Positions 5,871 to 37,388 of a stretch of 42,584 nucleotides of DNA are shown in pieces. Numbering within the stretch: the stretch's first letter is position 1; each line of letters starts with the position of its first letter. The translations under genes were made by a program, and so were the position numbers. The notes under the pieces were generated by a model that made no database searches, was not told where the DNA came from, and saw only the letters and a list, made by a program, of their open reading frames with translations. Location: positions 1 through 42,584 of the IMG/VR virus record IMGVR_UViG_2563366870_000004. One strand, 5' to 3'. The DNA comes from a virus (lineage: Duplodnaviria > Heunggongvirae > Uroviricota > Caudoviricetes).

Positions 5871-5887
5871 ATTACCTTTCAGGTAAT
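5871..5887. promoter_or_regulatory. Operator-like palindrome ATTACCT-TTC-AGGTAAT (perfect)
   Basis: Perfect 7-3-7 inverted repeat in the intergenic region upstream of the tailspike gene and just left of the IS insertion. Confidence 0.6.
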
Positions 5888-6036
5888 TTGCAAAACGTGC
5901 TGGATAGCAAACAAATTATTTGCTACTGTATAAACATGGGTCTTCCCCTGTTGTGGTGGGTGGTACATAATTGAGTGATTTTCAAACACCACACAGTACC
6001 TTTATGGTGTCTCTTTTTACATGAGAGGGAATTCTT

Positions 6037-6555
6037 ATGAGTGTGCCGCAAACAAAAGCTGAACTGCTTTTAGCTATTGATAAAAATTTTAGTAAATTAA
6101 TTAGTTACCTCAACACAATCCCACCAGAAATTACTTCAGATAAATCAATGGACGGACACGCCAAAGGAACGGAGATGAGTGTTCGTGATCTCGTTTCGTA
6201 TCTGCTTGGATGGAATGCTCTTGTTGTAAAGTGGATCGCTTCTGATGCTAAAGGTCTGCCTGTCGATTTTCCGGAAACTGGCTATAAATGGAATCAGCTT
6301 GGCCTTCTTGCTCAAAAATTTTACTCAGATTACAGTGAGTTAAGTTATGAGTTGTTAGTAGCTGAACTTCAGACTGTAAAAAATGAGATTGTGAACCTTA
6401 TTAATGATCGTACCGATGATATTTTGTATGGAAGACCATGGTACACAAAATGGACGATGGGGAGAATGATCTCATTTAACACATCTTCGCCTTACGCCAA
6501 CGCTAATGGAAGATTAAGAAAGTGGGCAAAAAATAATAATATCAGTTTAAAGTAA
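6037..6555 (+). CDS. ClbS/DfsB-like (DUF1706) protein, putative colibactin-type genotoxin resistance
   Basis: 172 aa; motifs GHAKGT, DLVSYLLGW, WYTKWTMGRMISFNTSSPYANANGRLRKW match my recollection of the ClbS family; GAGAGGG ribosome-binding site. Confidence 0.55.
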   Translation: MSVPQTKAELLLAIDKNFSKLISYLNTIPPEITSDKSMDGHAKGTEMSVRDLVSYLLGWNALVVKWIASDAKGLPVDFPETGYKWNQLGLLAQKFYSDYSELSYELLVAELQTVKNEIVNLINDRTDDILYGRPWYTKWTMGRMISFNTSSPYANANGRLRKWAKNNNISLK

Positions 6556-6573
6556 GCTTCAGAATGAAATTAT

Positions 6574-7794
6574 ATGGACGAAAAATCCCTCTATGCCCAT
6601 ATCCTTAACCTGACTGCACCATGGCAGGTTAAATCCCTTACCCTCGATGAAAATGCAGGTTCCGTTACTGTTACAGTCGGAATTGCTGAAAATACTCAGT
6701 TAACCTGTCCGACCTGCAGGAAATCCTGTTCTGTTCACGATCACCGACATCGTAAATGGCGCCACCTTGATACCTGCCAGTTCATGACATTAGTAGAAGC
6801 CGATGTTCCCCGCGTTATGTGCCCGGAGCATGGCTGCCAGACTCTGCCTGTACCGTGGGCAGGTTCCGGCAGTCGGTACACTCTGCTGTTCGAATCGTTC
6901 GTGCTCTCATGGCTTAAAATCAGCACCGTTGATGCGGTCAGAAAACAACTTAAACTTAGCTGGAATGCCGTTGACGGCATCATGACCCGCGCGGTTAAGC
7001 GAGGCCTGTCGCGGATTAAAAAGCCTTTATCAGTGCGTCATATGAATGTAGACGAAGTCGCCTTTAAAAAAGGGCATAGGTATATAACCGTGGTATCTGA
7101 TCGCGACGGGCGGGCACTGGCATTAACCGATGATCGTGGCACAGAGAGTCTTGCCAGCTATCTCCGTTCGCTTACTGACAGTCAGTTGTTGGCCATCAAA
7201 ACACTGTCGATGGACATGAATGCGGGCTATATAAGAGCAGCGCGTATCCATTTACCCAATGCGGTCGAGAAAATCGCCTTCGATCGCTTCCATGTGGCGA
7301 AGCAACTGGGCGAAGTGGTTGATAAAACCCGCCAGAATGAACATCCGCACCTCCCTGTTGAAAGTCGTCGTCAGGCCAAAGGTACCCGCTTCCTGTGGCA
7401 GTACAGCGACAAATGGATGACTGAGTCCCGGCAGGAAAAGCTGATGTGGTTGCGGGAACAGATGCAACAGACAAGCCAGTGCTGGACACTGAAAGAGCTG
7501 GCAAAAAATATCTGGGATCGCCCCTGGAGCACAGAACGCAGGAATGACTGGTTGCAGTGGATATCGCTGGCGTCTGAATGTGATGTGCCGATGATGAAAA
7601 ACGCAGCGAAAACCATTAAAAAACGGTTATACGGAATACTGAATGCAATGCGTCATCGCGTCTCGAATGGAAATGCGGAGGCGCTGAACAGCAAGATCAG
7701 ACTGCTGAGGATAAAGGCCAGGGGATACCGAAACCGGGAACGCTTTAAACTGGGAGTTATGTTCCACTATGGGAAACTGAATATGGCGTACTGA
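6574..7794 (+). CDS. ISL3-family transposase
   Basis: 406 aa; N-terminal zinc-finger CPTC...H.H...C..H region and overall ISL3 transposase similarity. Confidence 0.9.
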   Translation: MDEKSLYAHILNLTAPWQVKSLTLDENAGSVTVTVGIAENTQLTCPTCRKSCSVHDHRHRKWRHLDTCQFMTLVEADVPRVMCPEHGCQTLPVPWAGSGSRYTLLFESFVLSWLKISTVDAVRKQLKLSWNAVDGIMTRAVKRGLSRIKKPLSVRHMNVDEVAFKKGHRYITVVSDRDGRALALTDDRGTESLASYLRSLTDSQLLAIKTLSMDMNAGYIRAARIHLPNAVEKIAFDRFHVAKQLGEVVDKTRQNEHPHLPVESRRQAKGTRFLWQYSDKWMTESRQEKLMWLREQMQQTSQCWTLKELAKNIWDRPWSTERRNDWLQWISLASECDVPMMKNAAKTIKKRLYGILNAMRHRVSNGNAEALNSKIRLLRIKARGYRNRERFKLGVMFHYGKLNMAY

Positions 7795-7841
7795 GTCTTC
7801 CCACCATGATCGGGGAAGACCCATAAACATACAGTTATTGC

Positions 7842-8114
7842 ATGGAGAAGATTAAGATGCAGCAGTATCACTATCCACTGGAAGACGGATTTACCGAAAG
7901 GATTCACACGCCGGGAGGCGTCAGGTCACTGGTGGAGGGATCGCACTTGATGAAATTACTCCGGGATCTCGATAAGGATGGATTTAATGTCGATGGCCCA
8001 CTTGCCGAACTGACTGCACTGATTAACTACGTCACCAGCTCACAGATGTCTATGCAGGATCTGCAAACACATCTCGACTATTGTGCCGAACAATTACGAA
8101 AACAAACCCGGTAA
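7842..8114 (+). CDS. Small protein homologous to the C-terminal domain of the anti-repressor at 9256-9951
   Basis: LMKLLRDLDKDGFNVDGPLAELTALINYV...DLQTHLDYCAEQ aligns with LMNLLNQLQEDGHDVSGAAAELTTMFCYI...DIQTHAEYINDK. Confidence 0.5.
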   Translation: MEKIKMQQYHYPLEDGFTERIHTPGGVRSLVEGSHLMKLLRDLDKDGFNVDGPLAELTALINYVTSSQMSMQDLQTHLDYCAEQLRKQTR

Positions 8115-8121
8115 ATTTAAA

Positions 8122-8137
8122 GGCCGCAAGAGCGGCC
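8122..8137. terminator. Bidirectional hairpin between convergent genes
   Basis: GGCCGC-AAGA-GCGGCC perfect stem between the 8114 (+) and 8137 (-) gene ends. Confidence 0.5.
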
Positions 8138-36597: not shown

Positions 36598-36614
36598 TTT
36601 ACCTGTTGGGTAAT
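36598..36614. promoter_or_regulatory. Operator-like site TTTACCT-GTT-GGGTAAT in the cro/repressor intergenic region
   Basis: 2 mismatches to consensus; additional half-sites AGGTAAC (36560-36566) and GTTACCT (36581-36587) nearby. Confidence 0.5.
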
Positions 36615-36668
36615 ATTGCTTTAAATTGAATCATCTACTGATTCATATATGAGGCGATTTTCCAGAAA

Positions 36669-37253
36669 ATGAAAAGTATCCAGGACGTCCGCAGGCAAAA
36701 TCTCAACGACTTGATCGACCGTGAATTCAATGGTGTTCAGACGCGGATGGCAGAAAAACTTGGAACTCAGGCAAATCTGGTAAACCGCTGGGCTCTTGGC
36801 AAGAAGGTTATCGGCGACCAGGTTGCGCGAAAAATTGAAGCTGCCGCCAATAAACCCCGTAACTGGCTTGATATCGATCGCTCGCTTTCTCAAGAAGGTT
36901 TTCAGCCTGTCGGACCAAGCGACATTGGTCAGCTGGCGGCTCACAACCTGGAACGTTGGATGAGCGAAAGCCGAGACCTTTCAACGCAGGGAAAACTTCA
37001 CCGCGCATCCGGTGTCGCCCAAGTGACAATCAGCCGCCTGTTAAACAATGAGGTCAGCGTTTCCATTTCCACCCTGGAGAATGTTGCATCCGCATTCGGG
37101 CGTCACGGCTATGAATTACTGATTCACCCGCACGACCCTGCGACTATCAACTATGATCGCTCGCGCTACGCATTGTTACCTGAAACAGAGAAGGCAAAGA
37201 TCGAAAGTTACATTGAATTTGTCATCAACCAGAACGAAAAAAGCAAACAATAA
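36669..37253 (+). CDS. Prophage repressor candidate, dual HTH (XRE-type) domains, no S24 peptidase domain evident
   Basis: 194 aa; HTH-like segments QTRMAEKLGTQANLVNRW and LHRASGVAQVTISRLLNNE; flanked on both sides by the palindromic sites. Confidence 0.6.
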   Translation: MKSIQDVRRQNLNDLIDREFNGVQTRMAEKLGTQANLVNRWALGKKVIGDQVARKIEAAANKPRNWLDIDRSLSQEGFQPVGPSDIGQLAAHNLERWMSESRDLSTQGKLHRASGVAQVTISRLLNNEVSVSISTLENVASAFGRHGYELLIHPHDPATINYDRSRYALLPETEKAKIESYIEFVINQNEKSKQ

Positions 37254-37273
37254 AACTATAGTTTTCAGAAAGT

Positions 37274-37299
37274 AAGCCGCCTCATGGCGGCTTTTTTAT
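37274..37299 (+). terminator. Rho-independent terminator after the repressor gene
   Basis: AAGCCGCC-TCAT-GGCGGCTT followed by TTTTTTATT. Confidence 0.6.
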
Positions 37300-37309
37300 T
37301 GCCCATGAA

Positions 37310-37326
37310 ATTACCTTACGGGTAAT
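37310..37326. promoter_or_regulatory. Operator-like palindrome ATTACCT-TAC-GGGTAAT (1 mismatch)
   Basis: Upstream of the rightward early operon. Confidence 0.55.
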
Positions 37327-37371
37327 TTTTTTAACTCATATCTATTGACAACAAACCAAATACGCATAATT

Positions 37372-37388
37372 ATTACCTCAACGGTAAC
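37372..37388. promoter_or_regulatory. Operator-like site ATTACCT-CAA-CGGTAAC overlapping the putative early promoter
   Basis: 2 mismatches; TTGACA at 37345-37350 lies upstream; ribosome-binding site GAGGT and ATG at 37407 follow. Confidence 0.45.

Follow-up and report, generated by a model that had tools for sequence, protein, structure and literature searches.

Dispersed palindromes of a phiV10-like Uetakevirus prophage as probable operators of its lysogenic repressor

How far a lysogenic repressor reaches beyond its own immunity region is the question raised by a 17-bp palindrome, ATTACCT-N3-AGGTAAT, that recurs between positions 5871 and 37388 of the IMG/VR virus record IMGVR_UViG_2563366870_000004. 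The 42,584 nucleotides analysed here (the window) hold a Uetakevirus prophage, a podophage of the phiV10/epsilon15 kind, whose conserved blocks share ~97% identity with phiV10 and whose orientation is reversed. We propose, with a probability of about 0.85, that the palindromes are the operators of the lysogenic repressor Rep (36669-37253) and that they sit on the promoters of nearly every transcription unit of the prophage. Because the GenBank record of epsilon15 already annotates scattered sites of this sort, scattered repressor operators are known for the genus Uetakevirus and the present result is a confirmation rather than a discovery. The map of the operators in this lineage, their fusion to -10 hexamers, a 62-bp pairing, a cargo socket and a link to CI-type repressors are useful refinements, since the operators are unannotated both in the phiV10 record and in the paper on the phiV10-type phage ZX5 (PMC9782041), and they do not amount to a new kind of regulation.

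The abundance of the motif stands well apart from chance. Perfect copies begin at 5871, 8885 and 34291, and no match appeared in 100 dinucleotide-preserving shuffles; three more copies carry one mismatch (10016, 27727 and 37310) and four carry two (8978, 34229, 36598 and 37372), giving ten copies with at most two mismatches against 0.10 expected. An earlier note on this DNA, made from the sequence, had listed the same three perfect and three one-mismatch copies, which a pattern scan recovered at the same positions, and had held that a perfect palindrome is not expected by chance, as the shuffles bear out. When the motif is reduced to its 12-base core, ATTACC-N5-GGTAAT, 15 matches with up to two mismatches are found versus 1.08 expected, and its four perfect and eight one-mismatch matches amount to 12 sites. 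On a gene map built from open reading frames (ORFs) and homology, 7.8% of the window is occupied by neither gene nor RNA, and every one of the 12 falls in this fraction (P = 0.0777^12, ~5e-14), in agreement with the claim that the sites are intergenic; the strong sites are solely non-coding, and hits in coding DNA stay at chance level. The core hits with two mismatches at 3208, 3428 and 15680 were discarded as chance matches, all being intragenic and close in number to expectation. A blind repeat search of the window also returned the palindrome as its largest dispersed repeat family. Within the operators only the two 6-bp half-sites are kept, the central 5 bp varying freely. As for the earlier list of sites, the entries given were correct, and those at 34229, 30921 and 30939 and the weak ones at 36550 and 36581 had been omitted.

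The same arrangement is found across the genus. Five further Uetakevirus genomes, phiV10, epsilon15, SPC32H, Tyrion (Enterobacter) and BUCT711 (Klebsiella), contain 14-18 motif matches each, at the same ~10 syntenic positions, and blastn synteny shows that the DNA flanking the conserved operators is ~70-80% identical among Uetakevirus genomes. In the epsilon15 record (AY150271.2), seven scattered sites are annotated as 'protein_bind, repressor, lysogeny', and reading them out yields the same palindrome. The window prophage and epsilon15 share the consensus ATTACC-N5-GGTAAT, with half-sites ATTACC and GGTAAT 5 bp apart, the genus, the gene order and the operator positions (at terS, at the head operon, between ant and the tail fibre, downstream of rep and after the replication genes), as well as a repressor homologous to epsilon15 gp38 and SPC32H Rep. 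On the other hand, the window prophage has additional sites at the C4-ant module, at the divergent gene 8137-8865 and at a cargo operon, which epsilon15 lacks, and the epsilon15 annotation leaves out the OR sites and the second member of its 35906/35968 pair. The epsilon15 gp38 repressor and its binding sites are attributed to Kropinski et al. in 2007 (Virology 369:234, cited in PMC7380047). A full-text literature search for the motif, or for Uetakevirus together with operator, returned nothing specific, the primary epsilon15 and SPC32H papers being outside its reach.

Rep, encoded on the plus strand (36669-37253), is a protein of 194 aa with an N-terminal helix-turn-helix (HTH) domain and a C-terminal HTH_3-like dimerisation/tetramerisation region. 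It matches the structure of SPC32H Rep (PDB 5D50) over its full length (E = 3.5e-42), and is 99% identical to phiV10 Rep and 43% identical, again over the full length, to the Reps of epsilon15 (gp38) and SPC32H. Pfam assigned HTH families only (Cro/C1-type, HTH_3) and no S24 peptidase domain, the domain of RecA-dependent autocleavage. The NLVNRW segment, a putative recognition helix, is invariant among the Reps of six Uetakevirus genomes even though these proteins are only ~43% identical. A Rep profile search of IMG/VR yielded near-identical repressors, all 80 of the 80 matches listed being 99-100% identical to this one, and the link between repressor and motif was examined by tblastn on phage records and by a scan of viral contigs for the exact motif. 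It has been reported that over-expression of the ZX5 repressor lowers endolysin and holin transcripts by at least 99.97% (PMC9782041). That repressor is 99.5% identical to the Rep of the window, and the observation would fit repression of lytic genes by Rep, without showing direct action.

The scan of viral contigs points to the DNA-binding domain of Rep as the partner of the motif. It returned 120 stretches, 59 of which are Uetakevirus-like and hold up to eight sites per fragment, and the other 61 mostly have a single match; where the earlier note had asked about unrelated genomes, about half of the exact matches are thus Uetakevirus-like and the unrelated contigs mostly carry one copy. In eight of those 61 stretches, a repressor gene lies ~100-130 bp from the exact motif and encodes an N-terminal domain 27-38% identical to that of Rep, and seven of these proteins have a C-terminal half of the LexA/CI autocleavage type (S24 peptidase) instead of the Rep C-terminus. 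These loci have one or two further motif copies before the repressor gene, several of them with another exact copy 3-6 kb away; the sites before the gene in these eight contigs are ATTACCTTTTAGGTAAT and a second one 39 bp from it. The closest named relatives of the eight repressors are Acinetobacter phage repressors. In addition, the cI of Pseudomonas phage PseuP_224 has an N-terminal domain 39% identical to Rep's and ATTACC-N4-GGTAAT upstream. Because these unrelated repressors share only the N-terminal HTH domain with Rep, the motif appears to track that domain whatever its fusion partner, and CI-type repressors of unrelated phages probably use the operator specificity of Rep.

Around rep itself, the operators form two groups. 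The OR region, between the cro-like gene and rep (36550-36614), contains three sites: a weak one at 36550-36566 that lies over the predicted cro promoter (36568-36540), a second weak one at 36581-36597, and TTTACCTGTTGGGTAAT at 36598-36614. This 17/30-bp triple is also present in epsilon15 (33340/33357/33387) and in SPC32H. Just downstream of the rep terminator, the OL module (37310-37388, plus strand) consists of a distal operator (37310-37326), a predicted near-consensus promoter TTGACA-17-AATTAT (37345-37373) and a proximal operator (37372-37388) that covers the -10 end and +1; this promoter would drive the early-left operon, which starts at 37407 and includes recombination genes. The counterparts of the OL operators in epsilon15 (32554 and 32616) are annotated repressor sites. 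A degenerate copy at 36213-36229, between the post-cro terminator and the p42-like and replication genes, had been counted by the earlier note; it has three mismatches, with the GGTAAT half intact on the minus strand, and it is syntenic with weak sites of phiV10 (33111), Tyrion (35364), epsilon15 (33728/33800) and BUCT711 (6031).

Other operators occupy promoters far from rep, so that the earlier idea of a regulon extending beyond the immunity region is supported. On the minus strand, a perfect operator (34291-34307) and one with a single core mismatch (34229-34245), 62 bp apart, bracket the promoter of a DUF1064/nin-like operon that starts at 34226, downstream of the P-like gene 34344-35144. 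The earlier description of this site as inside the replication operon was imprecise: the pair follows the P-like gene, where phiV10 has a terminator, and stands on the promoter of the next operon. Its epsilon15 counterpart at 35906 is an annotated repressor site. Two tandem operators 18 bp apart (30921-30937 and 30939-30955, minus strand) serve the packaging operon; they come just after a terminator (30974-30991), with an extended -10-like TGgTACTAT on one side and the start codon of terS (30919) on the other, and are orthologous to epsilon15 11/29 (annotated 12-27), phiV10 86/104 and Tyrion 66/84. Alignment with three TerS orthologs places the true start (MPAEPK) at 30919, where it abuts the second tandem operator, and the pair seems to be coding only when the most upstream ORF start is taken. 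The terS start in the phiV10 record (41-715) and in the longest ORF of the window is ~27 codons too long, the extra codons being the two operators and the terminator.

The operator ATTACCTTTCAGGTAAC (27727-27743) is found at the end of a predicted plus-strand promoter, TAGACA-18-AATTAT (27699-27728), which reads toward tRNA-Arg(UCU) (28065-28141) and gene 28341-28763, with the head operon diverging on the minus strand; it is orthologous to the annotated epsilon15 repressor site at 2931. A further operator, ATTACCTTTGCGGTAAA (8978-8994), overlaps the predicted plus-strand promoter TTGATT-18-TATCAT (8950-8979) at its end; this promoter reads into an isrK-like RNA, a C4 RNA and a Bro-N antirepressor, and the operator is syntenic with phiV10 20496 and Tyrion 21392. 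At 93 bp from it, a perfect operator (8885-8901) stands 20 bp upstream of the start of the divergent minus-strand gene 8137-8865, whose product belongs to phrog_6762 and has a zinc-ribbon/Lar-like C-terminus; the 93-bp pair 8885/8978 recurs in TL-2011b (6385/6478) and in an IMG/VR contig. The operator ATTACCTTAAAGGTAAA (10016-10032) is fused to the -10-like TAATAT and precedes the plus-strand cargo operon (10058-11387) by 26 bp. Finally, the perfect operator ATTACCTTTCAGGTAAT (5871-5887) lies where transcription diverges, with the minus-strand tail-fibre gene (start at 5767) on one side and the ant promoter and its LexA box on the other, and is orthologous to sites in epsilon15 (19895, annotated), phiV10 (20876), SPC32H (20012), Tyrion (21775) and BUCT711 (16964).

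At six operators, the first two bases are also the last two of a -10-like hexamer that points toward the downstream gene or RNA: TATCAT at 8978, TAATAT at 10016, AATTAT at 27727, TGgTACTAT at 30939, AATAAT at 34291 and AATTAT at 37372. Three of these six (8978, 27727 and 37372) are within σ70-type promoters called by a promoter scan; at 34291, the scan places different hexamers, TTAATA-16-TAAAAT (34313-34286), over the operator. Altogether, the predicted promoters overlapped by operators are 37345-37373, 8950-8979, 27699-27728, 34313-34286 and 36568-36540. At two promoters, those of OL and of the post-replication operon, a second operator lies exactly 62 bp away, invariantly in six genomes, and among 29 short-range operator pairs a spacing of 62 bp occurs 11 times and of 63 bp once. 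When the OL and post-replication modules of the six genomes are aligned, the operators and a CTATTGA(C/T) -35 element stand out as conserved islands between drifting flanks of fixed length.

Structural work on SPC32H Rep offers a frame for this geometry. A citing paper describes how SPC32H Rep binds palindromic DNA as a tetramer, with DNA-binding pairs drawn from different dimers, and how Ant disassembles the tetramer (PMC9638917). According to a 2023 structural paper, the C-terminal domain adopts a p53-like tetramerisation fold termed 'TetDloop' and associated with DNA looping, the DNA-binding ends are ~100 Angstrom apart, and the mechanism of SPC32H-type repression still 'has not been extensively characterized' (PMC9986798). 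The same paper presents Rco of the Bacillus plasmid pLS20 as a tetrameric HTH repressor that loops two operators 75 bp apart, resembling SPC32H Rep in its N-terminal HTH, its C-terminal p53-like tetramerisation domain, its antirepressor partner and its paired operators tens of bp apart (PMC9986798). The recognition sequence and operator organisation of the Rco/pLS20 system differ, being based on direct repeats, and looping by the phage Rep is suggested by the conserved 62-bp spacing. Given that SPC32H Rep is tetrameric and that the 62-bp pairs (~6 helical turns) surround a promoter, it is a reasonable inference that a tetrameric Rep would bridge the two operators, and the spacing fits cooperative binding.

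The following model can be proposed for the action of Rep. A dimer of N-terminal HTH domains would read the half-site ATTACC, and ~15 operators would place the cro, early-left, post-replication, terS, tRNA/head, ant/tail-fibre, C4-ant, gene 8137-8865 and cargo promoters under the repressor. Because operators lie on nearly all transcription units, Rep alone would keep the entire prophage switched off, with no need for an antitermination cascade of the lambda kind. Bound Rep would occlude the -10/+1 region at six promoters, as expected from a -10 hexamer that shares its last two bases with the operator; where two operators are 62 bp apart, a single Rep tetramer could grip both, so that the promoter is clamped or looped. 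Repression would be lifted when antirepressors remove Rep, either a small Ant controlled by LexA or a Bro-N Ant that would be held down by a C4 antisense RNA and is itself transcribed from a promoter with a Rep operator. The analysis shows how many sites there are, where they stand, how far they are conserved and how they are placed relative to consensus promoters, together with the homologies of Rep, Ant and the C4 RNA; we infer that Rep is what binds them, that it represses by occlusion and that its tetramer loops the DNA. The arrangement would provide a simple geometry for repression by a tetrameric SPC32H-type Rep, with an operator fused to the -10 hexamer and pairs exactly 62 bp apart.

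Several observations weigh against this model. The promoter scan gave no consensus promoter in the expected register for 5871 and 8885. In the case of ant and rep, no promoter was called by the scan and none was convincing by eye, and 5871 could serve ant, the tail fibre or both. Moreover, a Rep operator beside the ant promoter is awkward if LexA alone releases Ant, and direct gating of the late operons by Rep leaves the early/late timing unexplained. It is also the case that the Cro-like protein could bind the same sites, although shared binding by Rep and this protein would not contradict the model.

A stronger version of the last point is that the sites are bound mainly by the Cro-like protein, in order to turn down early promoters during lytic growth rather than to maintain lysogeny. 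The gene for this small regulator (36284-36514, minus strand) is divergent from rep across the OR sites; its product matches phrog_35, annotated 'transcriptional repressor' (E = 5.6e-13), and is homologous to phiV10 p41 and epsilon15 gp39. In lambda-type switches, furthermore, CI and Cro share operators. Nevertheless, the co-occurrence of motif and regulator in unrelated prophages follows the N-terminal domain of Rep and not a Cro homolog, and the annotators of epsilon15 assigned the sites to the repressor, which makes this explanation improbable. We consider it less probable still that a host transcription factor recognises the motif. Intergenic palindromes are typical of host regulators too, and nothing more specific in favour of such a factor was found; the motif, in contrast, accompanies the phage whether the host is Escherichia, Salmonella, Enterobacter or Klebsiella, clusters around rep, and in the viral-contig scan half of its exact matches are Uetakevirus-like, with up to eight sites per fragment. 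To our knowledge, no E. coli regulator has the consensus ATTACC-N5-GGTAAT.

Explanations that dispense with a regulatory protein fare no better. Some sites do stand at junctions of conserved and variable DNA, for example at the boundary of the tail fibre and next to the slot that holds cargo behind ant2, as would be expected of module-boundary 'linker' sequences that promote the exchange of cassettes between related phages. A linker, however, would not account for the conservation of the 6-bp half-sites only, for a fixed register with the -10 and -35 hexamers or for the fixed 62-bp pairing, and the sites also occur beside repressor genes in unrelated phages; in addition, 17 bp is very short for homology-driven exchange, so that we regard this function as very unlikely. 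The least credible of the alternatives is that the palindromes act in RNA, as small hairpins with a role in termination, processing or stability. Folding of a 7-3-7 inverted repeat into a hairpin is indeed feasible, and RNase III sites of epsilon15 are annotated in some of the same intergenic regions. What is conserved, however, is the primary sequence and not the pairing, as copies with GGTAAA, GGTAAC or TTTACC break the stem without compensation; there is no T-tract after the sites, a terminator scan had no hits on them, and several are upstream of the predicted transcription start. The reading as hairpins or terminators was rejected on the grounds of the conserved sequence and the missing T-tract. 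Recognition by Rep is therefore preferred here over each of these alternatives.

Phage P1 offers a functional parallel, and the comparison with P1 C1 drawn by the earlier note was apt, as the prophage combines dispersed operators with a genuine C4 RNA-ant module. In the P1 C1/immI system, scattered operators each serve their own promoter, and a C4-family RNA lies upstream of an antirepressor behind a repressor-controlled promoter, as in the window. P1 C1 operators are asymmetric 17-mers. The operators of the window are symmetric, and Rep matches only Cro/C1-type HTH families and PDB 5D50 rather than the C1 family; because both operators and repressor differ, the system falls outside the P1 C1 family. 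In addition, the C4 target in the window appears, on reading the sequence, to be the ant ribosome-binding site directly, with no icd-like ORF evident, unlike the c4-icd-ant order of P1. The mycobacteriophage stoperators (L5 gp71, Bxb1 gp69), which the earlier note had also invoked, are asymmetric 13-14-mers that are orientation-biased, lie within transcribed operons and block elongation. They share with the sites described here the presence of many repressor sites far outside the immunity region; the latter, however, are symmetric, intergenic in their strong copies and overlapping with promoter hexamers, without any orientation bias within operons. The analogy with stoperators was rejected because the sites are palindromic and on promoters.

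The antirepressors of this prophage relate it to SPC32H. The Rep-Ant-LexA switch of SPC32H is reportedly due to Kim & Ryu (2013, J Virol) and Kim et al. (2016, PNAS; PDB 5D50/5D4Z). The window prophage resembles SPC32H in a Rep that is homologous over its full length and lacks the S24 domain, in the same small Ant, divergent from the tail-fibre gene, and in the places of the LexA box and of the operators. Its Ant (7842-8114, plus strand) is 86% identical to that of SPC32H. It differs in that the LexA box is split by an insertion sequence (IS), and in that it has an extra Bro-N-fused Ant paralog together with C4 and isrK RNAs, all of which SPC32H lacks; the SPC32H-type switch is thus present and disrupted in this copy. 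The IS belongs to the ISL3 family and is inserted inside the LexA box before ant (~5937-7823, within 5925-7835). Besides its transposase (6574-7794), the element contains a ClbS/DfsB-DUF1706 gene as passenger (6037-6555); its ends are inverted (GGGTCTTCCCC/GGGGAAGACCC), and it is flanked by the 8-bp target duplication ATAAACAT, which lies within the LexA box. No intact LexA box was found near ant in the window, because the insertion splits it; once the IS is removed, the box CTGTATAAACATACAG is restored and is identical to the one before ant in epsilon15 and SPC32H. The same IS junction was found in one of 5,426 complete E. coli genomes. Because the insertion puts ant out of reach of operator 5871 and of its promoter under SOS control, the SOS response may be unable to induce this prophage any longer.

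The second antirepressor is part of a predicted P1 immI-like secondary immunity module (9030-9951, plus strand) placed under the primary repressor. This module comprises an isrK-like small RNA (9030-9106; Rfam RF01394, 67.4 bits), a C4 antisense RNA (9131-9216; Rfam RF01695, 77.8 bits versus a gathering score of 45) and the Bro-N antirepressor ant2 (9256/9265-9951; Pfam Bro-N, PHROG 'anti-repressor Ant'), with ATG 9265 as the likely start. The C4 loop CCUUUUAG (9174-9181) can be read as complementary to CUAAAAGG (9249-9256), the ant2 ribosome-binding site. Over its C-terminal ~80 residues, the Bro-N antirepressor is paralogous to the small Ant (42% identity, E = 7e-17, PHROG family 450), and because of this paralogy the phage carries two proteins with a presumed Rep-binding domain. 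The two antirepressors would presumably be under different controls, LexA in the case of the small Ant, and C4 RNA and Rep in the case of the Bro-N Ant.

The cargo operon that follows the module (10058-11387) encodes PHROG families without known function; PADLOC gave no hits for a defence system, and no function could be assigned from Pfam or PHROGs. In other prophages, a 'socket' operator is found 66-87 bp past the ant2 stop, followed by at least seven different first ORFs, such as a YafO-toxin cassette in TL-2011b and another cassette in EC.W1-9. Since the socket operator precedes such varied cargo, the comparison supports the earlier suggestion that accessory genes are wired to the repressor, and such wiring would predict that the cargo is silent in lysogens. 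A more far-reaching proposal, that Rep is the direct gatekeeper of every transcription unit, that the socket puts any swapped-in cargo under the repressor and that the TTACC-reading HTH allows cross-repression, is possible and, in our judgement, tentative. If true, 'morons' in this lineage would stay off during lysogeny and be expressed only upon infection or induction, which is the opposite of classical lysogenic-conversion genes, and the sharing of a TTACC-reading HTH with autocleavable CI repressors (Acinetobacter-like, Pseudomonas) would permit cross-repression between unrelated prophages. In practical terms, the present work provides a ready map of ~15 operators and promoters for the very common phiV10-type E. 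coli prophages, whose repressor allele is widespread; the map predicts that a lysogen expresses neither tRNA-Arg nor the packaging genes, and keeps the cargo operon and the second antirepressor off as well.

A second conserved motif, TATGTGGTT in the direction of transcription, is present upstream of the lysis, tail-fibre, head and post-replication operons (3628-3641, 5832-5840, 27676-27684 and 34250-34258), and in the same places in phiV10, epsilon15 and SPC32H. The copy at the lysis promoter is a perfect palindrome, AACCATATATGGTT, and the one before the head operon is within a ~60-bp stretch that is almost invariant. The possibility that it represents a degenerate Rep half-site was rejected, as GTGGTT is unlike ATTACC. 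The motif could be the site of a late regulator, and it may bear on the source of the early/late order.

Regarding the boundaries of the prophage, the att core AATCATTCCCACTCAAT at 1652-1668 marks one end, and the left 1.65 kb of the window (1-1668) belongs to the host and encodes a glycine-zipper lipoprotein and a DUF5384 protein. On the other side, the integrase gene reaches the right edge of the window; an operator-like site is present upstream of int in all relatives (e.g., phiV10 26869), and its counterpart would fall just past this edge. The ORF annotated in phiV10 as p04 'hypothetical protein' runs antisense over tRNA-Arg (28065-28141), corresponds to 28057-28323 on the minus strand of the window, and is probably not a gene. 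Lastly, four to five iteron-like repeats of the ATCCCGTTTTTGGGAT type, spaced by 18-24 bp, are located at 35538-35663 within the DnaT-like replication gene 35126-35917, and probably constitute the replication origin.

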